Shown here piece by piece: positions 10,753 to 35,237 of a stretch of 64,000 nucleotides of DNA (the first letter of the stretch is position 1; every line of letters starts with the position of its first letter). Below the pieces are notes generated by a model that ran no database searches, was not told the DNA's origin, and worked only from the letters and a program-made list of their open reading frames with translations. The DNA is from a virus. The position numbers were made by a program, and so were the translations under genes. The stretch spans positions 18,637-82,636 of IMG/VR virus record IMGVR_UViG_3300046535_001697; one strand, written 5' to 3'.

Positions 10753-10768
10753 GGTGCTCCTCCCGTGG

Positions 10769-14594: not shown

Positions 14595-14597
14595 CGG

Positions 14598-16046: not shown

Positions 16047-16059
16047 CGGGCACCCCCTG

Positions 16060-19968: not shown

Positions 19969-20168
19969 GTGGATTCCACTTCGAGCGTGTACTGCTGGCC
20001 GACGTCGGCTCCTTCGTTCCAGTGGAGCTGGAGGGAGAAGCCGCGGACGGTGACGTACTGGCCCGCGTGGCCGGTGATGCTGACGCCGGTGAAGGTGGTG
20101 GTCTCGGCGAAGGCGTCGAGTGCGTCGGCGAGGGCGCGGAGGTCGGCTGCGGTGAGTCGCTCGCTCAT
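19965..20168 (-). CDS. Hypothetical protein
   Basis: 67 aa, coupled. Confidence 0.5.
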   Translation of the reverse strand: MSERLTAADLRALADALDAFAETTTFTGVSITGHAGQYVTVRGFSLQLHWNEGADVGQQYTLEVEST

Positions 20169-20231
20169 GCCTGGCGGCCGTGCTGGGTGTCGGTCACGTC
20201 TGTCTCCGTGTGGTTGAGGGGGGCGGGTGGG

Positions 20232-20594
20232 TCAGTGCTGGTTGAAGCCGCCGGGTTGGTGCTGGGCGGTTTCGGTGCTGTGGCAGGGCTTGCAGATGCC
20301 GCGCATGCGTTCGGGGGCGTCGGGGTCGGGGACGCCTTGGGCGAGGAGGTCGCGGCGGCTGGTGGGCCAGTGGTCGGCGACGGTGGAGGGGCGGCCGCAG
20401 CCGAGGACGCAGTTGGGGTCGCGGGTGAGGACGGTGGCGCGGGCCTGGTTCCAGGTTCGGCCGCCGTAGCCGCGTTGGCGGGCGGTGCCGCGTCGGGCGT
20501 CTGCTTGGCGTCGGTGTTCGTCGCAGCGGCCGCTGTCGGTGTACTGGGGGCATCCGTGGACGGTGCAGATGGTGAGTGCTCGGCCTCTGGGCAT
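20232..20594 (-). CDS. HNH endonuclease (packaging-associated)
   Basis: 'RQRGYG...W...VLTRDPNC...TVADH...ICKPCHSTET'. Confidence 0.85.
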   Translation of the reverse strand: MPRGRALTICTVHGCPQYTDSGRCDEHRRQADARRGTARQRGYGGRTWNQARATVLTRDPNCVLGCGRPSTVADHWPTSRRDLLAQGVPDPDAPERMRGICKPCHSTETAQHQPGGFNQH

Positions 20595-20650
20595 GGTGGT
20601 CACCTGCCTCTACGCTGGGCGCCCTTGTTGTCCCGATGTGGGGGTGCGTG

Positions 20651-20941
20651 ATGGTGGATCGTGTGGGCCGGGCGTTGTTGACGGCGGGTCTGGCTGCGGC
20701 GGCCTGTGGGCTGCTGTACGGGCTGTGGTCGGTGGGGCCGTCCGGTACGGATTGCGGGTCGGCGTTCATCCAGAAGGCGCGGGACAGCGTGGCGTGTGTG
20801 GCGGCTGTGGAGGGCCGGACGAACACGGCGTGGCTGTTGATGATCTCGGGCGGGTCGGTGGCGGCCGGGGCGGTCGTGCTGACGCGTGAGCCGGCGTCGG
20901 CGAAGCAGGCGGCCGCGCCGGGGGCGTCCGACCCGGCGTGA
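20651..20941 (+). CDS. Small two-TM membrane protein (moron, opposite strand)
   Basis: Two hydrophobic segments flanking 'DCGSAF...C' loop. Confidence 0.55.
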   Translation: MVDRVGRALLTAGLAAAACGLLYGLWSVGPSGTDCGSAFIQKARDSVACVAAVEGRTNTAWLLMISGGSVAAGAVVLTREPASAKQAAAPGASDPA

Positions 20942-20969
20942 GCGGGGGCCCGGGCCTGGCCGTCGCCGG

Positions 20970-21257
20970 TCAGGCCCGAGGCGGCCAGTGCCAGGTGCCG
21001 CCGGCCGTGGGGTCCTCGGAGTACGGGACGGCCGGGTCGAAGAACATGCCGGTCGGGTTGAGGATGCAGAGGCTGGCCACGATGGGGAGCGATGTCCCGT
21101 CGTTGGGGCAGCCGTCGTAGGGCTCCTGCTCGAGGTGTTCGGGGACCGCGGTGACGATGGCGGCTCGCGGCAGCGGCTGGTACTTCTGGGTGCCGTCGGG
21201 GAGGACGGGGCTGCCGTGGCTGACGTAGTGGACGATGCGGCCGATGGTCGGCTTCAC
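20970..21257 (-). CDS. Conserved phage hypothetical protein
   Basis: 'KPTIGRIVHYVSHGSP...RAAIVT...GGTWHWP', a widespread phage small-protein pattern. Confidence 0.75.
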   Translation of the reverse strand: MKPTIGRIVHYVSHGSPVLPDGTQKYQPLPRAAIVTAVPEHLEQEPYDGCPNDGTSLPIVASLCILNPTGMFFDPAVPYSEDPTAGGTWHWPPRA

Positions 21258-21292
21258 GCGGTCTCCTGAGGGGTTGTGGGGCGTGGCGCTGT

Positions 21293-21601
21293 TCAGGCGA
21301 CGCGCCAGCCTCCGTCGCGGCTGTGGATCATGTGGGCGCCGCAGCCTGTGCAGAGGGCGTTGGCCCGGTTGTCGGTCATCGACGTGATCTCGACGGGGTC
21401 GTGGGTGATGCAGGTCCCGGTGCGGCGCAGCGCGATGGTGAGGGCTGCGGGGGTGCCGGGTTCGGGTTGGATGCCGTAGAGGTCGTGTTCGAGGACGGCG
21501 ATGCGGGTCGGGTTGGGCCGGGGGGCCGGTTCGGGGTTGGTGTGGCGGTCGCGGAGTTTGGCGAGGGCGTTGCGGACGGTGGCGGCGGTGAGTGGGGTCA
21601 T
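21293..21601 (-). CDS. Hypothetical Zn-ribbon protein
   Basis: MTPLTAATV...RIAVLEHDL...CTGCG; RBS GGGAG. Confidence 0.55.
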   Translation of the reverse strand: MTPLTAATVRNALAKLRDRHTNPEPAPRPNPTRIAVLEHDLYGIQPEPGTPAALTIALRRTGTCITHDPVEITSMTDNRANALCTGCGAHMIHSRDGGWRVA

Positions 21602-21620
21602 CCGGGCTGCTCCCGTCCGG

Positions 21621-23786
21621 TCAGGTGATGCTGAAGGCGACGCCTTCGAGGTGGGGGTGTTCGGGGGTGGCGGTGACGTCGATCCAGGGTGTCCAGGTGC
21701 CGGGGCCGAGGGTGATGGCGCCGCCGTCGGGGCCGATGAGGAGTTGGGCGTGGGGGATGCCGTTGACGGTGGCCCAGGTGGCGGTGTGCCAGTCGCCGGT
21801 GGTGGGGCGGTCTCCTGGGGGGAGGATCGCGATCCGGACGGGGTAGCTGGAGGGGTCGGTGTCGGCGTAGACGGGGAGCTGGAGGAGTTCGGTGCCGTCG
21901 CGGTCCATGGCGTTGCTCCTCGCTGCTCCGCTGGTCCATCGGGTTCGGTTGCGGCCGGGGGTCCAGCGGGTGCGGGGTGGGCCGGTGCGGACGGTGCCGA
22001 GCTGGTGGCCTGTGCGGGTGGGCCCGTTGGCGGTGTCGAGTTCTGTGGCGCGGCCGGGGGTGAGGTTCTTGGCGCGTCCCGGGGCCTGGCCGGTGCTGGT
22101 CTCGGCGGCGGGGGTGACGGCGATGGTCCGGCCGGAGCGGGTGGAGCCGAGGGCGGTGCTGGTCTCTGTGGCGGGGGCTGTGCCGAGGCGCTTTGCTGCG
22201 CCTGCGGGGGTGGCGGTGTCGGTGCCGGTGGCCGCGGTGATGCTGCGGGTCTTTGTGCCGGTGGCGGGCCGGGCCGTGCTCGTTTCGGCGGCGGTGCCTG
22301 CCGGGGTGTGCTTGGCGCGTCCCGGGGTCTGGCCGGTGCTGGTCTCCGTCGCGGGGGCCGTGGTGGCGTGCTTGGCCCGGGCGAGAGTCTGGGCGGTGTC
22401 GACGCTGCCTGCAGGTGCCGCGGTGAGCCGCTTGGTCCTGGGGAGGGTCTGTGCGGTGTCGACGCCGGCGGCGGGGGTGAGCGTGGCGCGCTTGGTCCTG
22501 GGGACGGTCTGCGCGGTGTCGATGCTCGCGGCCCGGCCGGGGGCGAGGGTTTTGGTTCGTGCGGTGGCCTGGGCGGTGCTGGTCTCTGCGGCGGGGGTGA
22601 CGGCGATGGTGTGGCCGGCGGCCGGGTTGACGTTGTCGATCTCGGCGAAGTCGCTGGTGCCTGCGGAGCGCTGCGACTCGAAGTAGCCGATGAGGGTGCC
22701 GAGGCGCATCCACTGGGTGGGTGTGGCGATGGTGCGCTGGGTGGTCCAGGTCGTGTTGTCGGGGCTGGTCTCCATGAGGAGGGAGCCGCCGGTCTCACGG
22801 AAGCGCCACCAGGCGTGGGAGGTGGCGTTGTAGGTGAGGGTGGTCGGTGAGGCGTCGGAGCCGCCGACGTTGTTCCGCAGGACGAGGTTCCCGGTGACCG
22901 GGGAGTACTCGAATTCCAGGTTGGTGTTGGAGATGGTCGGCCCGGCGGAGAGGTAGGCGCTGAAGGTGACGGTGGAGCCGCCGCCGGCCGCGGGCAGGGT
23001 GGGGACCTGGAAGGCGAGCTGGGCGCCCTGGATCTCGTAGGCACCGACGGTGTACATGTCGGCGAGGGTGGTGGTGCAGTTGATGCGGGCCCGGCCGCCG
23101 GTGCCGCTGACGCCCGCGGTGGTGTTCCACAGGGTGCCGCTGATGCCGGTGGCGAAGGTGTCGGTGAGGGTGGTGATGGCGGGGGTGAAGAGGCCGTCGG
23201 CGCCGGAGAACTCGATCCAGCCGGGCTCGGTGGTGACGGCGGTGTCGCCGGACGCGAGGTCGGTGCCGCCGACGTTGCCGTAGTTGATCGTGGCGTTGTA
23301 CGTGGTGGCGAGGGCGTTCGCGCGGTAGCCGATTTCGGCGACGATGCGGTCGCCGACCTGGACGGCGACGGGTGTGACGGTCTGTGCGCCCGCGGTGGCG
23401 CCGGTGGCGGTGGTGGTGAATTCCGTGGCGCCGATGTAGTCGGTGAGGAGGGTGCCGCGGGGGGTGTCGGAGTCGCCGGACGTGACGTAGACGTGGAGGT
23501 GCCAGAACCCGTTGAGGTCGACGTTGGACTCTTTGACGCCGATGGTCCACTGCACGGTGCCGGACAGGGTGCCGGCTTTGACGGCGCCGGCGCTGATGGA
23601 GCGGTGGAGGAGGATGTCGCGGTCGGCGGCGGTGGATCCGACGTTGATGGACGACGTGCCGGCGGAGCCCTGGGGCTTGCGTCCGAGCAGTTGGATGTCT
23701 TCGCCGGTGGCGACGTCCCAGGCACCGCGTCGGGTGGTGGGGGTGTAGGGCGGGGCTGCGGATGTCAGCCAGAACCTGGTGGCCAC
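21621..23786 (-). CDS. Fibre/adhesin-like virion protein with lectin-like domain and 20-aa repeats
   Basis: 721 aa, Thr/Gly-rich beta domains, 'HAWWRFRETGG' ConA-like segment, ~10 repeats of AAETSTAQ-type unit. Confidence 0.6.
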   Translation of the reverse strand: MATRFWLTSAAPPYTPTTRRGAWDVATGEDIQLLGRKPQGSAGTSSINVGSTAADRDILLHRSISAGAVKAGTLSGTVQWTIGVKESNVDLNGFWHLHVYVTSGDSDTPRGTLLTDYIGATEFTTTATGATAGAQTVTPVAVQVGDRIVAEIGYRANALATTYNATINYGNVGGTDLASGDTAVTTEPGWIEFSGADGLFTPAITTLTDTFATGISGTLWNTTAGVSGTGGRARINCTTTLADMYTVGAYEIQGAQLAFQVPTLPAAGGGSTVTFSAYLSAGPTISNTNLEFEYSPVTGNLVLRNNVGGSDASPTTLTYNATSHAWWRFRETGGSLLMETSPDNTTWTTQRTIATPTQWMRLGTLIGYFESQRSAGTSDFAEIDNVNPAAGHTIAVTPAAETSTAQATARTKTLAPGRAASIDTAQTVPRTKRATLTPAAGVDTAQTLPRTKRLTAAPAGSVDTAQTLARAKHATTAPATETSTGQTPGRAKHTPAGTAAETSTARPATGTKTRSITAATGTDTATPAGAAKRLGTAPATETSTALGSTRSGRTIAVTPAAETSTGQAPGRAKNLTPGRATELDTANGPTRTGHQLGTVRTGPPRTRWTPGRNRTRWTSGAARSNAMDRDGTELLQLPVYADTDPSSYPVRIAILPPGDRPTTGDWHTATWATVNGIPHAQLLIGPDGGAITLGPGTWTPWIDVTATPEHPHLEGVAFSIT

Positions 23787-23817
23787 GGCTCACCGCCTCC
23801 CGGGCTTGTGAGGGTGG

Positions 23818-24267
23818 TCAGGCCGCGGAGGTGATCCGGATGAAGTCCGTGATCGTTGCCGTCACATCGCTGCCGTCCGGGGTGATCACGAAGTCGACGA
23901 GGACCCACGGTACGAGGTTGGAGTCGGTGCCGGTGGTGGTGTCGTTGTCGAACGCGAACAGGAGTTTGGAGATGGCGTTGCCGGAGGCGGCGGTCCAGGT
24001 GATGTCCGCGCAGTCCACGGCGTACCTGTCGTTGGTGTTGTCGACGGCCCCGGTGACGCTGGTGATCGTCTTGCGGCCCATCGTCGTCTGCTCGTTCGTG
24101 GCGCCGACGAAGAACGCGGCGACGTCGGCCTTGTCGCGCAGGACGCTGTCGGCCTCGAGTCCGCTCGTTTCGACGGGGATGACGATGAGGGCGGCGTTGC
24201 CGGTGCCGACGGCGTCGGCGAACGCCTTGGAGCGGCCGAGGGCGATGTTGGGGACGATGTTGGCCAT
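23818..24267 (-). CDS. Probable virion structural protein
   Basis: MANIVPNIALGR...DITWTAASG...ITPDGSDVT; GGAGG RBS. Confidence 0.6.
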   Translation of the reverse strand: MANIVPNIALGRSKAFADAVGTGNAALIVIPVETSGLEADSVLRDKADVAAFFVGATNEQTTMGRKTITSVTGAVDNTNDRYAVDCADITWTAASGNAISKLLFAFDNDTTTGTDSNLVPWVLVDFVITPDGSDVTATITDFIRITSAA

Positions 24268-24317
24268 GGTGGTTCCTCCGGCGGGGGGGTGCGGTGCGGG
24301 GTTCGCCGGGGGCCGGG

Positions 24318-24524
24318 TCAGGCTGCGGCGTGGTCCTGGAGGGGGACGAAGCGGGCCGGGCGGCCGCGGTCGGTGCACGGGGTGTCGAGGTGCCACCAGC
24401 GGGTCGTGCCCTGTTCGGCGGGCTGACCGCAGCGGGAGCAGGTGCCGGGGGCGGGCTGCCACGTGTCCCAGGTGGTGAAGGGCGCGTCGAGGGCGTGCCA
24501 GCGGTCCGGGTCGGGCTGGGTCAC
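24318..24524 (-). CDS. Hypothetical protein
   Basis: GTG start coupled to upstream stop; CxxC. Confidence 0.5.
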   Translation of the reverse strand: MTQPDPDRWHALDAPFTTWDTWQPAPGTCSRCGQPAEQGTTRWWHLDTPCTDRGRPARFVPLQDHAAA

Positions 24525-25042
24525 CCGGCGGCCTCGGTGGGGGTCCAGCGGACCCGGCCGTTCTCGAACGCGAAGCGGAGGCCGGAGACCTGGGCGACGC
24601 GGTCGAGGGTGGCCTGCCCGATGGCCGGGTCGGCGAGGTGGGTGCTGTACAGCTTGGCGTGGTGCTTGGGCCGGGGGCCGACCATCACCCACCGGTAGGC
24701 GCTGAGGTCGCCCCAGCCGCCGGTGTCGGTGCCGTCGGGGAGTTCGCCGATCGGGAGCCAGCCGGTGGGGGCGGGAGGGTTCGGGGTGTTGGAGGTGCCG
24801 ATAAGGAACAGGCGGTCGGGTTCCCGGTTGGGCAGGTCGATGTACAGCTTGTGGGGCCAGCCGTACTTGGCGTCCGCCCAGTGGGCCTGCGCGGCGGTCT
24901 CGGCGGCGAGGTCGTCGGGGTGGATCGATCCGCAGTGGCTGCAGGTGCGGTAGTGCTCGCCGGACATGGGCTCGCGCCAGGACCAGCCGCCCCAGCGGTC
25001 TGCCTCGGTGCCGTGGACGGGGTCGGGGGTGTCGCTGCTCAT
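24521..25042 (-). CDS. Hypothetical protein
   Basis: 173 aa, 'CSHCGSIHP', 'WADAKYGWPHKLY'. Confidence 0.65.
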   Translation of the reverse strand: MSSDTPDPVHGTEADRWGGWSWREPMSGEHYRTCSHCGSIHPDDLAAETAAQAHWADAKYGWPHKLYIDLPNREPDRLFLIGTSNTPNPPAPTGWLPIGELPDGTDTGGWGDLSAYRWVMVGPRPKHHAKLYSTHLADPAIGQATLDRVAQVSGLRFAFENGRVRWTPTEAAG

Positions 25043-25122
25043 GGCACTGGGCTCCCGTGGTTGTGGCCGGCCCGGACCTGCCCCCCTCAGAGCGGTCCGG
25101 GCCGGCGGCTTGTGGAGGGGGG

Positions 25123-25317
25123 TCAGTCGTTCCGCTGGGAGGCGAGCAGGGTGTGTGCGATGGCGTTCCAGCTGTCGGCGAGGCGTTCCAGGCGCTCCAT
25201 GACCGCGAGGTTCGTCTCGAGCTCGGCATTGCGGAGGAGCCGTGCGGCGTTGGCGATGGCTTCGTCTACCGTCGGCAAGGCTTCCACCGGCGGGTTGGGG
25301 ACGGGCTCTGCGGCCAT
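25123..25317 (-). CDS. Hypothetical helical protein
   Basis: 64 aa, GGAGA RBS. Confidence 0.6.
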   Translation of the reverse strand: MAAEPVPNPPVEALPTVDEAIANAARLLRNAELETNLAVMERLERLADSWNAIAHTLLASQRND

Positions 25318-25395
25318 GGGCGTCTCCGCGGTGGGGAACGACGAAGCCCCGCCCAGGGAGTGGCGGGGCCGTACAGGGGTGAGGGGGCAGCGGGT

Positions 25396-25623
25396 TCAGG
25401 CTGCGGCGGTGCGGTTGTTCGGCAGGGGCGGGACGGGTCCGGGGCTGCCGTCGTCCTCGGCGGGTGGGAGTTCGTCGAGGTCGTAGTAGGTGTAGCGGCC
25501 GTGGCGGTGCCGGGTGGTGCGGCCTTCGTGGCCCCAGCGGCGGATGGTGCCTTCGGGGTGGCCGGTCCAGATGGCGGCGGACGCGGCGAGGACAAGGCGC
25601 GGGAGGACGGGGGCGAGGGGCAT
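25396..25623 (-). CDS. Small MerR/excisionase-like HTH protein
   Basis: 'AAIWTGHPEGTIRRWGHEGR...YYDLDEL'. Confidence 0.65.
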   Translation of the reverse strand: MPLAPVLPRLVLAASAAIWTGHPEGTIRRWGHEGRTTRHRHGRYTYYDLDELPPAEDDGSPGPVPPLPNNRTAAA

Positions 25624-25663
25624 GCCGGCGCTCCAGGGCGAGGGTGTTGTGGTCGGGAACGCG

Positions 25664-25690
25664 AAAAGGGGCCGCCGTGTGGCGACCCCT
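25664..25690 (-). terminator. Intrinsic terminator in leader of late operon
   Basis: Minus strand AGGGGTCGCC-ACAC-GGCGGCCCC-TTTT. Confidence 0.55.
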
Positions 25691-26012
25691 CGGGGCGTAC
25701 GTAGACCATTCGAGCAGATCGTATGTTCACTCTGCTGCTCCGTCAACTTCCGGCCCTGGTGGCGGGACCTGCGGCGTTGCGCGCGTGTGGCTGTGCTGCG
25801 CCCGGCCGGGCCCCGGGGGTGGGCCCTTGGCGGGGCGGTGCGGCGGGGGTGGTGGGTGTTCGGGGTGCTTTCATGGCTGTGGCCCCACCCGGCGCGAATC
25901 CGGTAAAGAGTGAGCAAAATATCGGGGATGGTCGGTGGAAAGTCGCCGGTCAGCCTGCCATGGCGTACACGGACTGCATTCTTTGTGTTCGACCCGCCAT
26001 CAGTTCACGGGC

Positions 26013-26252
26013 CTACTCGGGGCTGCGGAAGCTTCGGCGGACGGTGCGGGGTGCGGGGATCCGGCCGGCGGCGACGAGGCAGTCCCAGACGGTGGTGCCG
26101 GTGGCAGCGGCCGGGGCGTCCGGGGCGGGGACCAGGGTGAGGTGTCCACGACGAGACCGTTCGCATGCTGCGGTTTCTTCTGACGGGCCGTCGGAATTCC
26201 GGGCGGCTCGTGCTGTTGCGCTGATGCCGGTCTGCTTGCCACGGTGATCCAT
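26013..26252 (-). CDS. Small protein with GTTVWDCLVAAG motif
   Basis: 79 aa, GGGGGAG RBS, divergent from MmyB-like gene; motif shared with 44412-44849. Confidence 0.55.
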   Translation of the reverse strand: MDHRGKQTGISATARAARNSDGPSEETAACERSRRGHLTLVPAPDAPAAATGTTVWDCLVAAGRIPAPRTVRRSFRSPE

Positions 26253-26441
26253 GCCGCTCCCCCGCACGTGGATGGGCCCACCTCGGGTGTGCACGGTTGG
26301 TGTGCGCGAGGTGGATGGGGCACCGATTGTTCCGGCATCAACGATCTGTTTTACAGGGGAAGATTCGTTAGGTAATTCGACGATCGGCCCGCGGGGGCGG
26401 GGTGCGGTCGTCGCCGGTGGCGATGATGGGTTGAGCGGGAG

Positions 26442-27272
26442 ATGGATAGCATCAGGCAGCGGGAAGCGCTGCGGGCGTTCCTGCGGTGTGCCAGGGCGGC
26501 TCTGTCGCCGGAGGAGGTCGGCCTGCCCCCGCGGGCCGAGGGGCGGGGCCGCCGCGCGGTGGGCCTGTCCCAGGAGCAGGTGGACGAGCTGATGAACCGG
26601 GCCGCGGGCACGTATGCCCGGCTGGAACGCGGCTCGCTGTACGGGGTGACGCCGGAGCTGTGCCGGGACGTGGCGCTCGCGCTGCGCTTCGCGGAGGAGC
26701 AGTGGCAGGCGCTGTGGATCTACATGTACGGGCATCTGCCGCCGTGGCTGCTGCACCCGTCGCAGGCGGGCCTGGTGGGCGGGCACTGGCGGCGGGTGGT
26801 GGAGATGCACGGGGAGCCGGCGTACGTGACGGACGCGGGCTGGAACATCATCTACCACAACCACCTGTTCGCGGCGATCTTCCCGGGGAGGGTGGCTCCG
26901 GCGAACGCGATGGAGTGGATGATGCTGTCGGCGGACGCCCGGCACCGGCTGGTGGACTGGCCGCGGGCGTGGGCGCCGAAGGTGCTGCCGCAGCTGCGGG
27001 CGGCGGTGTTGGAGCATCCGGAGAACGAGACGCTGCAGTGGCTGGACCGGGCGGTGCGGCGGGATCCGGTGGCGGGCCGGCTGTACGGGGAGACGCACGA
27101 TGCGCATCTGCAGCCGGACGGGGACGTGCGGCAGCTGGTGCACGCGGGCCGAGGGGACCGCCAGGTGGTGCAGATGGCGGCGGCGGAGCCGACGGGCAAG
27201 CGCGGTGCGCGGTTCATGGTGCTGCAGCTCGATCCGGTGGTGGGGGATCGGACGTTCGCCGACGTCATGTGA
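26442..27272 (+). CDS. MmyB-family transcriptional regulator (XRE HTH plus PAS-like ligand-binding domain)
   Basis: 'LRAFLR...LSPEEVGLP...RR.VGLSQEQV...YARLERG', then 'PAYVTDAGWNIIYHN'. Confidence 0.88.
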   Translation: MDSIRQREALRAFLRCARAALSPEEVGLPPRAEGRGRRAVGLSQEQVDELMNRAAGTYARLERGSLYGVTPELCRDVALALRFAEEQWQALWIYMYGHLPPWLLHPSQAGLVGGHWRRVVEMHGEPAYVTDAGWNIIYHNHLFAAIFPGRVAPANAMEWMMLSADARHRLVDWPRAWAPKVLPQLRAAVLEHPENETLQWLDRAVRRDPVAGRLYGETHDAHLQPDGDVRQLVHAGRGDRQVVQMAAAEPTGKRGARFMVLQLDPVVGDRTFADVM

Positions 27273-27292
27273 CGTGGTTCGGGAACTGATCA

Positions 27293-27323
27293 CCGGCCGC
27301 CCCTTGTGGTGAGGGGCGGCCGG
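27293..27323 (+). terminator. Strong hairpin between regulator and PKS
   Basis: CCGGCCGCCCCTT-GTGGT-GAGGGGCGGCCGG. Confidence 0.5.
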
Positions 27324-27433
27324 GTAGTTGTCTGGTCCAACGCACCGTGGGCGTGGCCGCTGATTGGCCGGGCTTGGCCGGGCGCCATCGTCCGGCCGCG
27401 TCTCGGTGCCGGACGAGAGGGAGGGGACCTGTC

Positions 27434-28507
27434 ATGATCAGTCCCGAAGTGCGGCCGGTGTTCGTGTCCCGGCCGGCGGTGTTCCTGCCGGAACACGTGG
27501 TGACACGGGAGACGATCCTCGCCGACATGCTCACCCGGCACCCGGACCACCCCCGGGCCCGGCTGCTCCCCCGGCTGCTGGACAAGCTGCCCGCCACGCG
27601 TCGCATGTCCCGGCCGTGGGAGACCGTGATCTCGGATCGGACGTTGGAGGAGCGCAACCGCGGGGCGTTCGCGGACGTGGTGACGATGGGTGGGGCCGCC
27701 GCGCGCCAGGTGCTGGAGCTGCACGGCGTGGACCCGGGCGCCGTGGACTGCGTGGTGACCACGCACTCCACGGGCGACGCCGTCCCCGGCCTGGACGTCC
27801 ACCTGGTCGACGCGCTGGGGCTGCGCCCGGATGTGTCGCGCCGTCCGATGACACAGCTCGGCTGCGGCGGCGGCGCGCACGGCCTGGTGATGGCCGCCGA
27901 GTTCGTGCGGGCCCGCCCCGGGTCGACGGTGCTGGTCGTCGCGGCGGAGTCCCTGTCGAGCATCTACCACCACGGCGACACCGACATCCAAGGCATGATC
28001 TTCAAGGCGCTGTGGGGCGACTCCGGCGCAGCGGTCCTCGTCTCGGACCGGCCGTTCGGGCCGGGGCTGCAGGTCGACGGGCCGACGTGGGAGTACCTGA
28101 TCCCCGGCTCGGCCGGCCGCTACACCAAGCGCCTCGACGCCGACGGCGTGCACTTCGACTCGGTGAAGGCGTCGATGAACTGCGTGCCGGACATGGGCCC
28201 GGCGCTGCGGGAGTGGCTGTGGCAGTACGGCCCGGAGCGGCTCGACTTCGTGGTCGCGCACACCGGCGGCGAGGCCATCCTCGCCTCCCTGGCCGACGAG
28301 CTGGAGCCCCTTGGCGTCGACACCGGCATGCTGGTCCACTCGTGGGCGTCCCTCGACGAGGAGGGCAACCTCGGCGGGCCGTCCGTGCTGGCTGTCCTGG
28401 ACCGCACCCACGCCGCGCCGCCGAAGCCCGGCGACCGGGGGCTGCTCCTCGGCTTCGGGCCCGGGTTCTCCGTGTCGGCGCTGACCGTGACATGGACTGA
28501 CGGCTGA
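27434..28507 (+). CDS. Type III polyketide synthase (PhlD/RppA-like)
   Basis: Catalytic triad motifs QLGCGGG, AHTGG, EGNLGG; 'GFGPGFS' C-terminus; GAGGGG RBS. Confidence 0.93.
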   Translation: MISPEVRPVFVSRPAVFLPEHVVTRETILADMLTRHPDHPRARLLPRLLDKLPATRRMSRPWETVISDRTLEERNRGAFADVVTMGGAAARQVLELHGVDPGAVDCVVTTHSTGDAVPGLDVHLVDALGLRPDVSRRPMTQLGCGGGAHGLVMAAEFVRARPGSTVLVVAAESLSSIYHHGDTDIQGMIFKALWGDSGAAVLVSDRPFGPGLQVDGPTWEYLIPGSAGRYTKRLDADGVHFDSVKASMNCVPDMGPALREWLWQYGPERLDFVVAHTGGEAILASLADELEPLGVDTGMLVHSWASLDEEGNLGGPSVLAVLDRTHAAPPKPGDRGLLLGFGPGFSVSALTVTWTDG

Positions 28508-28625
28508 GTCGCTCCGGTCGCTGCCCGGGCCGGGCTGTCCGACCCGGGCGCCATCATGCCCCGGTGGCCGGGTGATCCCCTGGCTGCCGAACCATCCCCT
28601 CGCCTCCCCGAAGGACAAGTCGCCG

Positions 28626-29450
28626 ATGCTCCATGTCCCTCCGCCCCCTCCTGCCGCCTCGGTTGCGGATGCCCCGAAGTGGACGGACGTGATGTCCGCC
28701 TGGGGATCCCTGGGCGCGGTCGTGTTCGCCGTCGTCGCGATCGGCGCCACCCTGTGGCTGGCCGACCGGGACCGGAAACGGTCCGAGCAGCTGCGGCAGC
28801 AGGACCTGGCCGCGGCCGCCCAGGACCGGGCCGAGGCAGACGCCCGGCTGATCGCCGAACGGGCCGCAGCGGACCAGCGACTGCGGGACGAGCGAGCCGA
28901 CCGGGACCGCCGCCAGGCACGCGACTGGCAGGCCGCTGCTGCGGTCAGGCTCCTGGAGCGGATCGCCGGGATCCAGCCCCATCTCGTGCGGCTCACCAAC
29001 CACCAGACGTCCCCCGTGGCGCAGCCGGACCGGACCGAGGCGATTCGGCACTTGCGCGACGGCGCCATGTCCGATGCGCTCGCCCTCGGCGACGCCAACG
29101 GGACGCTCCTCTACCGGACGCTGGCCGGTCTGGTCGTCGGCGCGACCCCGGCCATGAACGAGCTCCAGCGGACCGGGAGCGATGGCGCGACGCTCGGTGC
29201 CTCGGCGGAGATGCTGGCTCTCAACGTGCGCCGCTACTCCCGGTACGTGCGTCTGTGGCTGCACCATCTGATCGAGCACGGCTCCATCCCGGACCACGCG
29301 GTCGGGCCGGCCCGTTCCCTTCATGCGCCGATCCTGACGGCGCTCACTGCCCAGGTCGCGTGGACGCCGATCGAGCATCCGGCCGGGTGGGACGAGGACA
29401 CCGACCTCGACCCGGACGATCCCCAGTCGAGGTTGTACCCGCGCAGGTAG
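28626..29450 (+). CDS. Membrane-anchored coiled-coil hypothetical protein
   Basis: 'WTDVMSAWGSLGAVVFAVVAI' TM segment followed by coiled coil; start uncertain. Confidence 0.6.
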   Translation: MLHVPPPPPAASVADAPKWTDVMSAWGSLGAVVFAVVAIGATLWLADRDRKRSEQLRQQDLAAAAQDRAEADARLIAERAAADQRLRDERADRDRRQARDWQAAAAVRLLERIAGIQPHLVRLTNHQTSPVAQPDRTEAIRHLRDGAMSDALALGDANGTLLYRTLAGLVVGATPAMNELQRTGSDGATLGASAEMLALNVRRYSRYVRLWLHHLIEHGSIPDHAVGPARSLHAPILTALTAQVAWTPIEHPAGWDEDTDLDPDDPQSRLYPRR

Positions 29451-29553
29451 CCGTGGTCGGGAAGCGAGCCGGCCGCCCTGTCACGCCCGCGCGCAATGAT
29501 GTGCACGGCGGTCTCCCCCTCGGCCGCCGTCCCCCAGCGATCCGGAGAACACC

Positions 29554-29889
29554 GTGGACCAGAACCAAGTCCTCAAGCACGTCGTCGCCATCCTCGCCGC
29601 CGGGGACGGGATGCGGACCTCGGACGACCCGCAGCTCGGCACCGAGTTCACCCAGCTCCTCGGCGAGGTCATGAACGACTCTCTCGGCAAGCTGGAGTTC
29701 GCCGAGGACGAGCCGCTGAGCGAAGTCCTGCCGGTGATCGGGCAGGCGTTCGCCGAGCCCCTGATGAAGCTGGTCGGCGGATTCATGGTCGCCTTCCTGC
29801 AGCTCGCCGAGGTCCACGACTCCGGGCAGACCCACCTGTCTTCGAAGGATGTCCTGCAGGACCTGGCGCTGCGCGTCGAACAGGGCTGA
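29554..29889 (+). CDS. Hypothetical helical protein
   Basis: 111 aa, GGAGA RBS. Confidence 0.65.
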   Translation: MDQNQVLKHVVAILAAGDGMRTSDDPQLGTEFTQLLGEVMNDSLGKLEFAEDEPLSEVLPVIGQAFAEPLMKLVGGFMVAFLQLAEVHDSGQTHLSSKDVLQDLALRVEQG

Positions 29890-29955
29890 CCACCGGCCGG
29901 CACATGCCGCGGCCCCCCTCCCCCGTTCGTCCGGGGGGGGGGCCGCTGTCGTTGT

Positions 29956-30444
29956 TCAAGCCCTGACGGTGGGCCACTCGTACTTCCCGGGGTACTGGAT
30001 GTCCCTGCCCCAGGTGTTGGCCGCGTCGGTGTCACCGATGAATGCGAAGCCTTCGCCGTCACCGATGCTGCAGTACTCGCTCATGGCCTGCTGCTGGTTT
30101 CCGCACCGGCACCAGCGGTCGCCGTCCCAGGCGTAGACGCCGCGGTCGGCACCGGCCCGAACGAATTCGGCAAGGGCTTTGGCCTCCTCGACGTCGCGCA
30201 CTCCAATGCAGGCGCTGGTGTGCCAGGCGTCGAGGGCCGGGCCGTCGGGGAAGACGTGGCCGTTGAGGGCGACGAGGAGCTGCCCGGGGGTGAAGGGCCA
30301 CGCGGGTTCTTCGTCGGCCGGGGTGTGGGTGCCGGTGATGACGAACCATCCGATGTCGCGCAGGCGCACGGGCTTGCAGTCGTTGAGGGCGTAGAGGACC
30401 TCGTCGGCGGTCGGCCCGGTGGGGATGGTGTAGCGGTCGGTCAT
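29956..30444 (-). CDS. Hypothetical protein
   Basis: MTDRYTIP...; GAGGA RBS. Confidence 0.55.
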   Translation of the reverse strand: MTDRYTIPTGPTADEVLYALNDCKPVRLRDIGWFVITGTHTPADEEPAWPFTPGQLLVALNGHVFPDGPALDAWHTSACIGVRDVEEAKALAEFVRAGADRGVYAWDGDRWCRCGNQQQAMSEYCSIGDGEGFAFIGDTDAANTWGRDIQYPGKYEWPTVRA

Positions 30445-30455
30445 GGCCGGGTTCC

Positions 30456-30965
30456 TCACGCGTCGGGCGCCCAGTCGGGCTGATAGTCGGGGTGCCCGCG
30501 GTACGGCAGGGCGAGCAGGCAGAGCAGCATCAGGTCGGCCCCGTTGCCCGGGTCGCCTCCCACTCCCCACTCGCTGTCGATCTGCGCCTCCATGCTGGTG
30601 ACCTCGGGGACGATCTCGTTGATGACGCGCCGCTTGGCGGCGACCTCGGCCAGGGTCCGCGCCGGGTCCTGGCGGGCGATGTGCCGGTGCTGGCCGACCG
30701 TCAGCTTGCCGCTGGCGGAGTAGAGCGCGACGTCGTTGGGGATCGGGCTGGCGTCGTCCCAGCGGCCGTCGGTGGTGGCCTTGGCGCCCAGGGCCGCGCT
30801 CTCGTCCATGGACAGCATGTCGAGGAGGAACGCGCGGATGTCGGTCGTGCGGAGCCCACAGGGGCCGTGGAGGTAGCGGGGCTCCGGGTCGTACGGCCCG
30901 GTGTAGTTCTCACGGACCGGGCATTCGGCGGCGTCGTGGTAGCCGGGGATGCGCTGCTCGGTCAT
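30456..30965 (-). CDS. DUF6221-like actinophage protein
   Basis: 'HIARQDPARTLAEVAAKRR...LALPYRGHPDYQPDW'. Confidence 0.75.
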   Translation of the reverse strand: MTEQRIPGYHDAAECPVRENYTGPYDPEPRYLHGPCGLRTTDIRAFLLDMLSMDESAALGAKATTDGRWDDASPIPNDVALYSASGKLTVGQHRHIARQDPARTLAEVAAKRRVINEIVPEVTSMEAQIDSEWGVGGDPGNGADLMLLCLLALPYRGHPDYQPDWAPDA

Positions 30966-30969
30966 GTGC

Positions 30970-31359
30970 TCAGCCTTCCGCTTCGGGTGCCGGGGCGAAG
31001 ACGGCGAGGGCAGCGGTGGCGAACTGGTAGGGCTCGCCGACGAGGTGCCAGTGGTCGCGGGCCACTGCGAGGATCTTCTCGGCGTCCTCGGCGGAGACGC
31101 CGCGCCACCGCGCCTCGTCGACGTAGCGGTCGTGCCGCTGCCGAGCCTCTCGGGCGCGGGCCTCCTGCTCGTCCCGCACGCGGGAGATGAGGACCCCGTA
31201 TGCTGCCGCGACCGCAGGGGCAACGCCGCCATTTCCGAACTCGCAGTGGACGTCGTGGCAGGCGTGATCGTCCGAAGCGGGGGCGTAGATCAGGGGTGTG
31301 CCGTGCGTCGGGCAGACGCAGTGGGTGCCGCACTGGTGCTGGTGGGCCATGCGGTTCAT
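30970..31359 (-). CDS. Hypothetical Cys/His-rich protein
   Basis: 129 aa, GAGAGGA RBS. Confidence 0.55.
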   Translation of the reverse strand: MNRMAHQHQCGTHCVCPTHGTPLIYAPASDDHACHDVHCEFGNGGVAPAVAAAYGVLISRVRDEQEARAREARQRHDRYVDEARWRGVSAEDAEKILAVARDHWHLVGEPYQFATAALAVFAPAPEAEG

Positions 31360-31404
31360 CCTCTCGCAGGGGGCCCGCCCCGGACACCTGCCGGGGCGGG
31401 CGGG

Positions 31405-31742
31405 TCAGCGGTCGAGCAGGGACGCCTTCACGGCCATGGACAGGGCGGTCCCGCGTCGGTCGTCCTCGGCGATGAGCCGGCTGGCCTGGGTCTGGGTGAT
31501 GTGGAGGGCGCGGGCTGCGCGGGCTGCTCCGCCGTGCTCGGTGCCGACGAGGTCGCGGACGAGGTTGGCGTCGGCGCGCTGGAGGAGCTGGTCCTGGCGG
31601 GCGATCAGGGCGCGGCGGCGCTTGATGGTGGCCCGGGCGGCGGCGGGGTCGGCGGGCAGCGCCAGGCGCAGGATCTCGGTGTACTCGTCGAGGGCGTCTC
31701 GGGCATGCCGTCGTCGTCGAGGGCGATCTGCCTGATGCGCAT
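31405..31742 (-). pseudogene. Out-of-frame fusion of a gene start and an HTH-bearing gene remnant
   Basis: ATG with AAGGAG RBS reads MRIRQIALDDDGMPE and then loses frame; the other frame reads ...GGAARAARALHITQTQASRLIAE...* with no start. Confidence 0.55.
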
Positions 31743-31778
31743 AGCGGTTCTCCTTCGGGTCTTGGCGGTTTCGTGAGG

Positions 31779-32546
31779 CTACTCGGCGGCTACGACGGGG
31801 ATTCCGTACTCGCCCTTGGCGCCGCGCACGGCCTTGCCGTCCTTGACGAGCTGGGTGCAGACGTTAGCGACGGTGCTATAGGAGACGCTGGCCAACTCGG
31901 CAAGCTGGTCGACGTGCAGGTAGGCGACCCTGCCGGTTCCGGGATCGCAACACGCCCCAAGTGCCAGGAGGATCTTCTCGGCGGCCGTGGGTGCCTTCTC
32001 CCTGGCCGGCGCCTTCTGGGTGGGAACCCAGCCGTGGAAGGCTTCCTTCACAGTCAGCGACGGCTTGCTGAGGGCGCATCTCTCGATGAACCGCGTGATG
32101 CGCGGAGTGAGCTCGAACCACTCGGTGTTGTGCACCCTCTCTCTGGCAAACCGGCGGTGCAGTGCCTGTTCGAGCGCGGCACCGCCGCGCAGGAGGAGCA
32201 GCACATCCCGCTCCCGCAGAGCGAGGGTGCCGACCCTGCCTTTGAGGTTGGTGGTGTAGCCGATTTTGATTCGGCTGCCGTTGGTGAGGAAGTACACGGC
32301 GCTGGGATGTGACCCCAGGAGGGCGCCTTGGATGTCGAGGGCCTTCGCCCTTTCGATGATGCCCCTGTCCGAAGCCTGCTCGACAGTGTCGGAGGCCTCA
32401 ACGCGGATGAAGGCTTCGGTCGCCAGGTGGACGACGGTTGCGAGGTGTTTGCGGCAAAGGGGTACCGGGCGGCTGATGAGCGGCGCTTCCCAGCAGGGGC
32501 CGTCGTTCTCGATGACGGCGCAGTCGTCGATGGGCGGGGTAGTCAC
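31779..32546 (-). CDS. GIY-YIG (T5orf172-like) domain protein with C-terminal HTH
   Basis: 'VYFL...IKIGYTTNL...LEQALHRRF...EWF'; lower GC than neighbours. Confidence 0.8.
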   Translation of the reverse strand: MTTPPIDDCAVIENDGPCWEAPLISRPVPLCRKHLATVVHLATEAFIRVEASDTVEQASDRGIIERAKALDIQGALLGSHPSAVYFLTNGSRIKIGYTTNLKGRVGTLALRERDVLLLLRGGAALEQALHRRFARERVHNTEWFELTPRITRFIERCALSKPSLTVKEAFHGWVPTQKAPAREKAPTAAEKILLALGACCDPGTGRVAYLHVDQLAELASVSYSTVANVCTQLVKDGKAVRGAKGEYGIPVVAAE

Positions 32547-32568
32547 GGACGGTGCTCCTCTGTGCTGG

Positions 32569-33057
32569 TCAGTTGGCGCGGTTCTTCCAGCCGGATGCGG
32601 CGCTGGCGTGGCTGGTCGCGGTGGAGTGGGAGGTGGAGCCGGTGTTGCTGTTGTTGATGTTGACGGTGACTTTGGCGGAGGAGCCCTTGAGGAGGCTGAC
32701 GGCCGCGGCGGCGACGCCGACGGCCAGGCCGGCGCCCTCGGCGGCGTGGGCGAACTCGGCGAGGCCGTGGGCGTAGTGGCCAACCGCAACAGCGACACCG
32801 GCGATGGTGCCGCCGGAGGCAACGATGCGGGCGGGCCACGGGTCACGGGGTGCCTGCTGGACGATGACCGGCGCCGGGGCCGGCTGGGGCTGGGGGGCGG
32901 CACGGGGCTCGGGCGCCGGGGTGTCGTTCATGTAGACGGCGACGGGCTTGTGGTCCTCGACACCGATGGCGATGCCGATGCCGGTGAACTGCCCGGCAGC
33001 GAGGTCGGCCTGGGTTGCGTAGGCGGTGCGGTCGGCGGACTGCTGGGTGGTGGTCAC
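32569..33057 (-). CDS. Two-TM Spd-like membrane protein
   Basis: Pro-rich linker, 'RDPWPARIV', two hydrophobic helices; coupled to traB. Confidence 0.55.
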   Translation of the reverse strand: MTTTQQSADRTAYATQADLAAGQFTGIGIAIGVEDHKPVAVYMNDTPAPEPRAAPQPQPAPAPVIVQQAPRDPWPARIVASGGTIAGVAVAVGHYAHGLAEFAHAAEGAGLAVGVAAAAVSLLKGSSAKVTVNINNSNTGSTSHSTATSHASAASGWKNRAN

Positions 33058-35237
33058 TGCTGCTCCTCGGGGGCGTCGGTGCGGTGCTTGACGTGGGCGT
33101 AGGCGCCGCGCATGGGCTTGTAGAACTGGGGCTCGGCCTTCAGCCAGTCCGTGATGGCGGACCGGGACGGTGCCGGGGCAACCGGGAAGATCACGGCGAA
33201 GAGTTCACGGATGGCGTCGGGGCCGATACCGGACGGGCCGGCCTTGACGACGATGCTGAAGACGGTGGGCCAGCGGGCGTCGTCGCTGACGCCGGGGGTG
33301 GGCGTGGGGCCAGTTGCCTGCTTCGGCGCCGGGGCGGACTCGGGGGTGAGGTGCGCGGGGGGCTTCCACAGGGCGCCGCCCTCGCCGAGGATCTCCCGGA
33401 ACTGCCGGTCGAGGTCGGCGTCGTGGCTGGTGGTCTCGTTCATGGCGCCGCGTACGCGGTTGCGGGTCTCCTCGGCGGCGGCGATGGCGTCAGCGGCGCT
33501 TCCGGCGGGCGGTGTGCTGTCCCAGTCGGCGGTGACGCTGCGCCTCGGCGTGCTGTTCCCGTCCGTGGTCGGGCCGGCCTGCGGGGGGACGGCGTCCATG
33601 ATTCCGGCGAGGATGCTGTCGGGGTCCTGGACGTCGATGAGGAACAGGTGGTCGGTGTTGTCCCAGCGCCGCTCGTACGCTTCACCGGCGACCTTGCGGG
33701 ATGCGGCGTCGAGTTCGGGGCGGCGGGTGCTGACCTCCTGGATGAGGGCCATCATGATGTCGGGCTTCATGAGGTAGGTCTTGAACGGGCGGGCGTGCTT
33801 GCGGCCGAACTTGAGGAAGCCGCAGCCCTCGTAGGGGGCGTCTTCGGGCTTGAGGCGCTCATTCCAGCCGAACAGGTAGTTCAGCTCGGCTTCGGTGTCG
33901 ACGCCGAGGCCGATCTTCATGATGGACTGCTTGAGGACCTGCGGTTCGGCGATGACGTCCTGGGTGGCGCGCAGGGCAGCGTTCTCGACGTTGCAGGCGG
34001 TGGCCCGGCCGATCTCGATGATCTCGACGATGTTGTCGCCGACCTTGCGGAGGATCTCGTCGCGGCGGGCGCGCTGCGAGAAGAGCATGGCGATCTCGTC
34101 GTTGTTGAGGGTCAGGGCGGGGATGCGCGGGGTGACGGGCAGCTTGTCGTCGTTGGCCTGGAGCTCGAGGGCCTTGTAGGCGGTCTTGCGGATCTTGGCG
34201 ATGCGCTTCATGGCCTCGGTCATGGCGAGGGCCTTTTCGGGGGTGTCGGCGACCCAGTCGACGGGGGGCTTGCCGGGCTTGCCGAGCTGCGTCCACAGAT
34301 GGAGCCAGGGCAGGGCGAGGTTGCCGCCGTTGAGGTCGATGACCCAGACGAGGTTGTCGACCATGCGGAGCTGGTTGGCGATCTTGACGTTCATCAAGTT
34401 GGACTTGCCGGAGCCGCGCTGGCCGACGGTGACGCTGGAGGCCTGGCGCATGACGGCGCCGGCCTTCTCGCCGTCCTGGTAGACGCCGATCGCGGTGAAG
34501 TCATTGATCGACAGGGGGGAGAAGTCCATGGGGTAGGGGACGTCGTCGAGGAGGTGGTTGACGGTGGCGACGTTGACGAGTGCGGTGCCTCGGTCGGCGC
34601 CGGCTGTGACCTCGACGCCGCAGCCCTCGGGGAGGCGGGCGTCGCCGGCGAGCCGGTCCTCGAACGGCTTGAGTTGGCGCCAGGTGGTGCCGCCCGGGGG
34701 GACGATCTCCAGGGTGTAGCCGCCGCCGCTGTCCCACTGCTCGATGGCGAGGACGGTGGTGTTGTGGACGGCGCAGACGCGGCCGATGCGGGCGGTCCAT
34801 TCGGCGGCGAGTTCGGTGCGCAGGGCCTGGGCGGCGTTGGCGATGTCGGTGGCCTGCTGGTCGGCGGCGGCCTGGGCGGTGGCGCGCCCGGTGCGGGCTT
34901 CGCCGGTCCAGGCCATGCCGAGGCCGATGGTTCCGGCGGCGAGGGTGCCGAGGCTGGTGGTGGTCCAGGGGCTGGTGGCCATGGCCCAGGAGCACCAGGT
35001 GCCGGCGCCGGCCCAGGTGGCGGCTCGGACGGCGAGGCTGGTGCCGGTGATGTGGTGGGTGCCGCGCTGGCGGACGCCGGCGAGGTGGTGGCCGAGGAGG
35101 CCGGCGCCGGCGGTGGCGGCGGCCCACATGGGGGGCATGTGGGCGACGTGGCCGGCCCAGGCGGCGGCGAGGGTGGCGCCGGCGATGTTGAGGGGGCCGG
35201 TGACGGGGCCGTGGCCGGCTTCCCAGTCGACGTTCAC
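33054..35237 (-). CDS. traB: TraB-like FtsK/SpoIIIE conjugative DNA translocase
   Basis: N-terminal TM helices, Walker A 'GQRGSGKS', 'WVIDLNGG', Walker B 'LNNDE', C-terminal wHTH-like segment. Confidence 0.85.
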   Translation of the reverse strand: MNVDWEAGHGPVTGPLNIAGATLAAAWAGHVAHMPPMWAAATAGAGLLGHHLAGVRQRGTHHITGTSLAVRAATWAGAGTWCSWAMATSPWTTTSLGTLAAGTIGLGMAWTGEARTGRATAQAAADQQATDIANAAQALRTELAAEWTARIGRVCAVHNTTVLAIEQWDSGGGYTLEIVPPGGTTWRQLKPFEDRLAGDARLPEGCGVEVTAGADRGTALVNVATVNHLLDDVPYPMDFSPLSINDFTAIGVYQDGEKAGAVMRQASSVTVGQRGSGKSNLMNVKIANQLRMVDNLVWVIDLNGGNLALPWLHLWTQLGKPGKPPVDWVADTPEKALAMTEAMKRIAKIRKTAYKALELQANDDKLPVTPRIPALTLNNDEIAMLFSQRARRDEILRKVGDNIVEIIEIGRATACNVENAALRATQDVIAEPQVLKQSIMKIGLGVDTEAELNYLFGWNERLKPEDAPYEGCGFLKFGRKHARPFKTYLMKPDIMMALIQEVSTRRPELDAASRKVAGEAYERRWDNTDHLFLIDVQDPDSILAGIMDAVPPQAGPTTDGNSTPRRSVTADWDSTPPAGSAADAIAAAEETRNRVRGAMNETTSHDADLDRQFREILGEGGALWKPPAHLTPESAPAPKQATGPTPTPGVSDDARWPTVFSIVVKAGPSGIGPDAIRELFAVIFPVAPAPSRSAITDWLKAEPQFYKPMRGAYAHVKHRTDAPEEQQ

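Follow-up and report, generated by a model that had tools for sequence, protein, structure and literature searches.

In this study, we analyzed a pair of adjacent genes, encoding a ligand-domain regulator and a stand-alone type III polyketide synthase (PKS), which resemble the vioB-vioA (violapyrone) cassette and are located in the IMG/VR virus record IMGVR_UViG_3300046535_001697. The whole stretch examined, hereafter the window, comprises 64,000 nucleotides (nt) and corresponds to bases 18637-82636 of this 82,636-bp record, which is classed as linear and 87% complete. The G+C content of the window is ~72%. Genes were called on the basis of G+C content at third codon positions (GC3), and family scans were added. 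Both genes of the pair are on the plus strand: the regulator (276 amino acids (aa); 26442-27272) is followed by a spacer of 161 bp (27273-27433) and then by the synthase (357 aa; 27434-28507).

The synthase was recognized as a vioA-like type III PKS by its domains, its catalytic triad and its alignment with a protein of plasmid pCQ3. Both PF00195 (66.5 bits; cut-off, 27) and PF02797 (27.8 bits; cut-off, 27) were detected; the match to Chal_sti_synt_N had an E-value of 3e-18, matches to FAE1, ACP_syn_III and Chal_sti_synt_C were also over their cut-offs, and 124 PDB sequences matched at E ≤ 0.001. The residues of the triad, Cys144 (27863-27865), His276 (28259-28261) and Asn312 (28367-28369), were invariant across an alignment of 32 sequences and lined up with the corresponding motifs in 3V7I and 1U0M. 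Thus, the intact Cys-His-Asn enzyme reported in a first-pass annotation of this DNA, made from the sequence alone, was confirmed. On the other hand, the GTG at 27347 that it had taken as the start of the gene proved to be wrong. The start is the ATG at 27434, because GC3 was flat over 27347-27448, a ribosome-binding site (GGGAGG) lies ahead of the ATG, and the gene call in a public protein collection is also 357 aa long. The nearest solved structures were germicidin synthase (Gcs) 3V7I (profile E = 3e-79), which is named as Gcs in PMC13730376, and 1U0M (9e-73).

The regulator (GC3, 0.94) matched the Pfam ligand-binding family MLTR_LBD (PF17765) over residues 117-242 with 46.1 bits (cut-off, 26.3; E = 7.2e-12). 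As a single sequence, it gave weak matches to HTH_31 and HTH_3, with HTH_31 at 18.7 bits and under its cut-off of 27. When a profile of 39 sequences was used, the best solved structure was MltR (3PXP, E = 3.7e-5), residues 22-133 of which aligned to profile positions 33-143, that is, the helix-turn-helix (HTH) and the start of the ligand domain; phage repressors were also matched. The motif GRGRR..GLSQ.QVD was conserved in the alignment. Based on these matches, the regulator is predicted to have an N-terminal XRE-type HTH and a C-terminal MLTR (MmyB-like, PAS-like) ligand-binding domain. The first-pass annotation had correctly recognized the pairing of an MmyB-type ligand-domain regulator with a stand-alone PKS. 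Because MltR, the solved member of the family, was crystallized with myristic acid (PMC3406030), a lipid-like ligand of the regulator, either starter or product of the synthase, is plausible.

A two-gene cassette of this kind has been characterized in Streptomyces somaliensis SCSIO ZH66, in which a circular plasmid of ~85 kb carries vioA (type III PKS, 350 aa) and vioB (XRE-family regulator, 272 aa) (PMC4924298). According to this report, deletion of vioA abolished violapyrone B, deletion of vioB increased it ~8-fold with the appearance of four further analogs, vioA transcription rose as that of vioB fell, and the flanking open reading frames (ORFs) were dispensable. The expectation that a stand-alone enzyme could make small compounds agrees with the studied homolog, whose cluster consists of these two genes alone and produces small alkyl-pyrones (PMC4924298). 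VioA is described as 95% identical to pCQ3.110c (WP_012840496.1) and VioB as 95% identical to pCQ4.19c (PMC4924298), and pCQ3 proteins stood in for VioA and VioB in all our comparisons; WP_012840496.1 was located at 84153-85205 of pCQ3 (NC_013449.1). The window synthase was 45% identical to pCQ3.110c over 352 aa (E = 2e-99), and the window regulator was 44% identical to the pCQ3 regulator over 256 aa (E = 4e-61). Mutagenesis of VioA showed that I174 and Y229 matter, that S242 is essential and that L190I is neutral (PMC5898002). In the alignment with pCQ3.110c, I174, L190, Y229 and S242 were all kept in the window enzyme, as I177, L193, Y230 and S243, respectively; S243 was invariant and Y230 nearly so in the 32-sequence alignment. 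The position of the gatekeeper Phe (VioA F191) is occupied by Trp194 (28013-28015, plus strand). VioA has been reported to group with Cpz6, DpyA and Gcs, and 21 further Streptomyces genomes were found to have vioAB, 'most' of them on a linear plasmid (PMC5898002). The words 'phage', 'pZL12' and 'MmyB' are absent from the main texts of both vio papers (PMC4924298, PMC5898002).

To place the window pair among its relatives, we used one genome per species and found that 522 of 542 candidate stretches encoded a PKS relative, the best 80 of which were examined. The regulator was located upstream of the PKS, on the same strand and within 1.5 kb, in 65 of these 80 loci; no regulator was found in 12, and in 3 it was elsewhere. 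Clustering of neighbors in 81 gene sets gave the PKS in 79 and the regulator in 66, followed by a family present in 17. Only these two families were thus widely shared. Pair analyses were restricted to 62 sets with calls for both genes. In these, pairwise distances of regulator and PKS were strongly correlated (Mantel r = 0.905; 0 of 999 permutations as high), and the mean identities of the two proteins (58% and 59%) indicated similar divergence. These correlated distances show that the pair travels as a unit; co-adaptation is not proven by them, since linked genes would correlate anyway.

The 65 paired loci were distributed over contigs of >120 kb (36 loci), contigs of 80-120 kb (20) and short contigs (9). 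The >120-kb set includes complete chromosomes of 8.5 and 7.46 Mb, and neighbors on the large contigs included genes for GFO/IDH/MocA oxidoreductase, TetR, MFS, EamA, acyl-CoA dehydrogenase, isochorismatase, MarR and short-chain dehydrogenase/reductase (SDR) proteins, as well as glyoxalase, GCS2, cold-shock, NUDIX, GNAT and protease genes; no phage genes were found among the neighbors in these chromosomal neighborhoods. A mainly chromosomal location of the pair had been named in advance as evidence against a phage signaling switch, and this is largely what was observed, with 36 of the 65 pairs on contigs of >120 kb with chromosomal neighbors. Among phage records, the PKS matched only pZL12 (44.5% identity), in which a 'transcriptional regulator' (pZL12.99) is followed by a type III PKS (pZL12.100), and a scan of viral contigs with the PKS gave 11 pattern matches, 0 of which were confirmed. 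PLSDB contained 40 plasmids with the PKS at E ≤ 1e-60, 30 of them of 84-102 kb, and the regulator matches adjoined the PKS in every record cross-checked by coordinates. Genomes sampled from two genera were screened at the same threshold: 35 of 151 had a member of the PKS family in the genus to which L003 (a Kitasatospora record) belongs, and 33 of 401 did in that of L045 (a Streptomyces record). The spread is patchy, as of an accessory unit.

The PKS tree contained 80 rows, that is, 78 loci, the window and pZL12 (L030 and L038 were dropped, as their PKS was not called by the GC3-based caller). Phage-plasmid and chromosomal contexts interleaved on this tree, and at least five changes of the phage-plasmid label were needed; one chromosomal context (7 rows) was nested inside a phage-plasmid clade (support 99*). 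The window fell in a clade of 8 rows (99*), comprising six Kitasatospora-titled records, one Streptomyces-titled record and the window itself, and its nearest relative was plasmid pCMC57_01 (97.9 kb), with which it has neighboring phage genes in common. As its nearest relatives are Kitasatospora records, the host of the window is probably Kitasatospora. The gatekeeper Trp was confined to this clade and was present in 4 of the 62 pairs, namely the window, L003, L006 and L015, the last three being Kitasatospora-titled. The pCQ3 enzyme was 71-76% identical to the clade holding pZL12 and the nested chromosomal group, which places VioA there; the window belongs to a sister clade that branches more deeply within this same family of regulator-linked enzymes.

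Several variants of the locus were also observed. In L021, L031, L040, L043 and L069, the PKSs of which form their own clade, a gene of metallo-beta-lactamase fold (~275 aa) separated the regulator from the PKS or immediately preceded the PKS. In L014, L018, L022, L052 and L057, the PKS is closely followed by a second MmyB-like gene, which is encoded on the other strand and adjoins an ABC-type permease gene. L009, L011, L012 and L013 represent a related PKS clade without the regulator, in which a CHMI-like isomerase, an SDR, a small cupin and an MFS transporter are conserved; this looks like a different small cluster.

The element that carries the window pair encodes a virion block of tailed-phage type on the minus strand (3548-17694). 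Family scans identified genes for the terminase large subunit (TerL, 16060-17694), portal (14598-16046), protease (13605-14594), major head protein (11296-12603) and tape measure (3548-7189), all on the minus strand; the virion genes are thus real and on the strand opposite to the pair, as the first-pass annotation had stated. The element also encodes an FtsK/SpoIIIE-like (Tra-like) protein (33054-35237, family scan), DUF2637, ParA, ParB (63236-64000) and two DNA methylases, and a tyrosine integrase and a GntR regulator are encoded in the same record outside the window. The combination of virion genes with plasmid partition and transfer genes indicates a phage-plasmid make-up of Streptomyces type. 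The regulator-PKS pair forms a plus-strand island flanked by minus-strand blocks, ~8.3 kb away from the start of the terminase small subunit (TerS) gene at 18148. Megablast of window positions 20000-34000 against phages gave no match, Rfam and tRNA scans of the window found none, and searches of PHROGs and PADLOC returned none for the pair. Among sequencing runs containing this DNA, no RNA run was listed, whereas five DNA runs contained it with shares of 0.05-0.32.

Terminase relatives of pZL12 (≥55% identity) were found in 34 Streptomyces and Kitasatospora plasmids, 25 of which carry the PKS; 9 did not at E ≤ 1e-60. As pCQ3 and pCQ4 carry the pZL12-type terminase, the vio cassette too sits on phage-plasmids. 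The window TerL had no detectable similarity to pZL12.67c (BLASTP E = 1.8), and among the Streptomyces plasmids of ~90 kb only two were matched by the window portal (41%). Since the terminases are unrelated, the cassette is carried by at least two phage-plasmid lineages, the packaging genes of which are unrelated. Earlier papers have remarked that it occurs on plasmid prophages (PMC10023795, PMC4487206), and a homolog on pSLE1 was described as a PKS without a surrounding cluster (PMC4487206). The position at the head of the late operon, which had been stressed in the first-pass annotation, is not conserved. In pZL12 the pair is ~22 kb away from the virion genes, and in four loci on contigs of ~90 kb (L019, L023, L042 and L074) the cassette is directly upstream of, and co-directional with, genes for a DUF4055 portal-like protein (622 aa) and a scaffold-like protein, at about 9-14 kb of each locus. 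These four loci show a third placement relative to virion genes.

We then examined the spacer between the two genes (27273-27433, plus strand), which contains TGATCA (27287-27292), an inverted repeat, a -10-like TAGTTGT and the ribosome-binding site GGGAGG. The inverted repeat, just past the regulator stop (27293-27323), is perfect, with a 12-bp stem of 100% complementarity and a 7-nt loop, and may be either a terminator-like hairpin or a dimer-binding palindrome. It should be noted that the PKS had been described as directly following the regulator; the two genes are indeed adjacent and on the same strand, but the 161-bp spacer with its perfect hairpin lies between them. A -10-like heptamer, TA(C/G)(C/G/T)T(T/G)(G/T), was present in 38 of the 62 spacers (mean 5.5 and maximum 12 in 200 shuffles), usually followed by a C-rich stretch, with a CAGGG-type element ~20-30 nt upstream that replaces a normal -35. 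In pZL12, the element upstream of the heptamer forms a perfect palindrome of 14 bp around a TGATCA core, and the spacer of L045 has a similar perfect palindrome. These features suggest that the PKS has its own promoter. The operator-like 18-mer of pZL12 occurred in one perfect copy, with none other within 2 mismatches in 89 kb, and the eight loci with the exact 10-mer had one extra copy in 163 kb of flanks; in the relatives, the operator-like palindrome thus appears to be private to the PKS promoter. A promoter and terminator consensus scan of 25300-30100 returned one promoter-like site (25746-25718, minus strand) and one weak terminator-like site, neither of them at the cassette.

TGATCA itself occurred 14 times in the window versus 5.8 expected (0 of 100 shuffles reached 14), and the 11-mer around the spacer copy was not enriched in the window (13 matches versus 8.7 expected). 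Because the flanking bases of the copies do not match, no regulon can be claimed from this excess. Two copies (18394-18399 and 18424-18429), 30 bp apart, are intergenic and upstream of the TerS gene; another pair (27287-27292 and 27435-27440) brackets the spacer, with the second copy overlapping the PKS start codon. A class-II-type activator model, suggested by the poor -35 and the upstream palindrome, was dropped as the leading view because deletion of vioB raises the product ~8-fold (PMC4924298).

On the basis of these results, we think it probable that the pair represents a diverged version of the vioB-vioA cassette, which is a mobile, self-contained unit carried as accessory cargo by the phage-plasmid. 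The synthase would take beta-keto-acyl starters from host fatty-acid metabolism, condense them with methylmalonyl-CoA and lactonize the products to 3-methyl-4-hydroxy-6-alkyl-alpha-pyrones (violapyrones or close analogs); these steps have been demonstrated for VioA, and the window copy is expected to act likewise. The regulator, judged by its sequence, may be a ligand-gated MmyB-like XRE protein with a lipid-type pocket. By analogy with VioB, for which negative regulation has been demonstrated, it most likely keeps the promoter of the synthase shut until the ligand arrives, and this ligand may be fatty-acid-like or pyrone-like. In the relatives, its site would be the palindrome over the -35 region, as suggested by the conservation of this palindrome and the poor -35. 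In the window, the cargo takes the form of a plus-strand island, which has a promoter region of its own and is flanked by phage blocks on the minus strand.

Several points weigh against this view. An identity of 45% is too low to deduce the product from the sequence, and the gatekeeper Trp of the window clade could change the starter or the product. The window spacer has only TGATCA in common with the palindrome of the relatives. In addition, a poor -35 with an upstream site would also fit activation, and since MmyB is an activator, the sign of regulation may differ between clades. A related possibility, which we regard as rather unlikely, is that the Kitasatospora-clade enzyme with its gatekeeper Trp makes another product class, so that the vio name would mislead. 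The low identity to the VioA proxy, the separate and well-supported clade (8 rows, 99*), the confinement of the change from F191 to W194 to this clade and the close PDB profile scores for Gcs and 1U0M are all in line with such a difference in chemistry. However, the window enzyme retains the triad and the four residues that were mutagenized in VioA, the linked regulator belongs to the same family, and tailoring genes typical of tetrahydroxynaphthalene or resorcinol clusters are lacking nearby.

The product might also act on host development or on competitors, either as a germicidin-like inhibitor of spore germination and hyphal growth or as a weak antibiotic, and thereby benefit the carrier strain or hold neighboring spores in a condition favorable to the element. 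This appears unlikely. It would be consistent with germicidin synthase as the nearest solved relative, with the grouping of VioA with Gcs, DpyA and Cpz6 (PMC5898002), with the response of vio expression to the developmental regulator WblA and with the activity of violapyrones against methicillin-resistant Staphylococcus aureus (best minimal inhibitory concentration, 25 ug/mL; PMC4924298). This antibacterial activity is weak, however, the main texts of PMC4924298 and PMC5898002 contain no violapyrone germination assay, and the sequence is silent on either effect.

The first-pass annotation had favored a phage communication system that is arbitrium-like in logic. Arbitrium (AimP/AimR) systems use peptide signals, and their receptors control a lysogeny regulator. 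In such a circuit, the pyrone would diffuse between hyphae, and the regulator would sense it and control both the PKS and the lytic switch, plasmid maintenance or transfer; we consider this very unlikely. The minimal architecture of a synthase with a ligand-domain regulator, the retention of the cassette in most pZL12-type plasmids as well as in the window lineage with its unrelated TerL (E = 1.8), and the divergence in step of the two proteins could each be reconciled with it, as could the excess of TGATCA with its two copies in the intergenic region upstream of TerS. The regulator is also divergent from the minus-strand block in the window and in its two nearest relatives, an arrangement usual for MmyB paralogs (15 of 16 in Streptomyces coelicolor; PMC3406030); however, the divergent neighbors are not homologous between the relatives. 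Furthermore, the 36 pairs on contigs of >120 kb have neighborhoods without phage genes, copies from chromosomes are intermingled with those from phage-plasmids in the PKS tree, which needs at least five label changes, and the position relative to virion genes varies. The 18-mer of pZL12 is single in 89 kb, only one extra copy of the motif was found in 163 kb of flanks of eight loci, and the window 11-mer is not enriched. The module is therefore not confined to phages or prophages, given the 36 of 65 pairs in chromosomal context and the presence of homologs in 35 of the 151 and 33 of the 401 genomes sampled from the two genera. The proposed switch is unsupported because chromosomal copies exist, virion placement is not conserved and the operator-like palindrome is found only at the PKS promoter, and VioB represses the synthase itself. 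None of our results shows the cassette steering the phage life cycle. There is only a slim chance that the alkyl-pyrone is a diffusible signal with the MmyB-like protein as its receptor, and that the pair, in addition to opening or closing the synthase promoter, informs the phage-plasmid of the density or developmental state of the hyphae carrying it and biases the choice among plasmid maintenance, hyphal transfer and lytic growth.

Beyond the cassette, two co-directional plus-strand ORFs are located downstream of the synthase and outside the conserved unit: one of 292 aa (28572-29450; 253 aa if started at 28689) with one predicted membrane helix, and an acidic one of 111 aa (29554-29889). Neither had a match in Pfam, NCBIfam, PHROGs or PADLOC, tblastn found neither in the 80 related loci, and Atlas returned only unnamed clusters for 28572-29450. 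The earlier statement that tailoring and export genes are absent holds insofar as these two ORFs match no family, and no further. Upstream of the regulator, a stretch of ~818 bp without coding signature (25624-26441; GC3 flat in all frames) is shared with the divergent minus-strand block, and the start at 26013 of the region marked in the first-pass annotation falls inside it. The sole ORF of this stretch is a doubtful minus-strand ORF of 79 aa (26013-26252; GC3, 0.74). It has the peptide GTTVW(D/E)CLVAAG in common with another minus-strand ORF (44412-44849; GC3, 0.84); all 6 of the 6 DNA differences over 36 nt are at third codon positions, and only the minus frame is open at both sites. Each ORF is divergent from an XRE-type gene and lies on its upstream side; these genes are the MmyB-like gene and 45063-46259, respectively. 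A search for this motif in the 80 related loci and in ~19 kb of the 90 kb of pZL12 (L001) was negative. Finally, a minus-strand ORF of 721 aa (21621-23786), which contains an internally repetitive Thr/Ala-rich stretch and matched phrog_14065 (E = 7e-45), was outscored by its antisense frame in the GC3-based gene call; this ORF and a 149-aa phrog_26662 gene are syntenic with plasmid pCMC57_01.

The chemistry of the cassette and its negative regulator have already been published, and the window represents a further divergent copy. Our data extend previous studies in three respects: the vio regulator belongs to the MmyB ligand-domain family, which is unstated in the main texts of both vio papers; most pZL12-type phage-plasmids and a lineage with unrelated virion genes keep the cassette, which moves in and out of chromosomes; and a gatekeeper Trp is present in the Kitasatospora clade. 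Literature word searches returned no functional study of a phage-plasmid PKS (the vio papers, being differently worded, escaped those searches) and no paper joining MmyB with type III polyketide synthase or MmyB-like with germicidin. The question raised is what the alkyl-pyrone does for a phage-plasmid that so often keeps the cassette. If the signal reading were true, it would explain the retention of the cassette by two phage-plasmid lineages with unrelated virion genes, and the pair would stand as a polyketide analog of the peptide arbitrium systems, with a receptor of a new class for pyrone signaling in actinomycetes.

We also compared the window pair with the closest known systems, including vioA-vioB. 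The resemblance to arbitrium is confined to the proposed logic, a signal producer and a receptor on a temperate element; in contrast to arbitrium, we found nothing that connects the cassette with a phage regulator, and its occurrence is not restricted to phages. Gcs of S. coelicolor (PDB 3V7I) is the best structure match of the synthase, both as a single sequence (E = 8e-45) and by profile (3e-79), and is likewise an alkyl-pyrone synthase with fatty-acid-derived starters (PMC5898002). However, its similarity to the window PKS is lower than that within the vio family, the N-terminal ~60 residues of the window enzyme align weakly as a separate low-scoring stretch, and the next ~30-residue segment of Gcs has no counterpart. 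The regulator has the XRE HTH with an Arg-rich loop and the PAS-like ligand domain of the MmyB/MltR family, but it is co-directional with its partner, whereas 15 of 16 S. coelicolor MmyB paralogs are divergent from theirs (PMC3406030). Moreover, MmyB is described as an activator (PMC3406030), whereas VioB, the studied homolog here, is a negative regulator. With vioA-vioB, the window pair shares a two-gene organization in which an XRE-family regulator stands beside a stand-alone type III PKS, as on the ~85-kb plasmid; both proteins are similar over their full length to the pCQ3 proxies, and the triad and the four mutagenized residues are kept. The differences are the identities of only 45% and 44%, the separate clade, the Trp in place of the gatekeeper Phe, a spacer without the palindrome of the relatives, the unrelated terminase of the carrier and a host that is probably Kitasatospora. 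Among whole elements, pZL12 (GQ919031) is likewise a phage-plasmid on which a type III PKS gene comes after a regulator gene; it encodes ParAB, an FtsK-like Tra protein and an integrase/recombinase, as the window element does, and a GntR regulator and DNA methylases are common to both. It differs in its PKS (44.5% identical), in its unrelated virion genes and in the placement of the pair, which occupies 78.8-81 kb within a block of plus-strand genes and is separated from the beginning of the virion block by ~22 kb. The gene content of both elements is in agreement with a plasmid backbone to which different virion modules have been joined.

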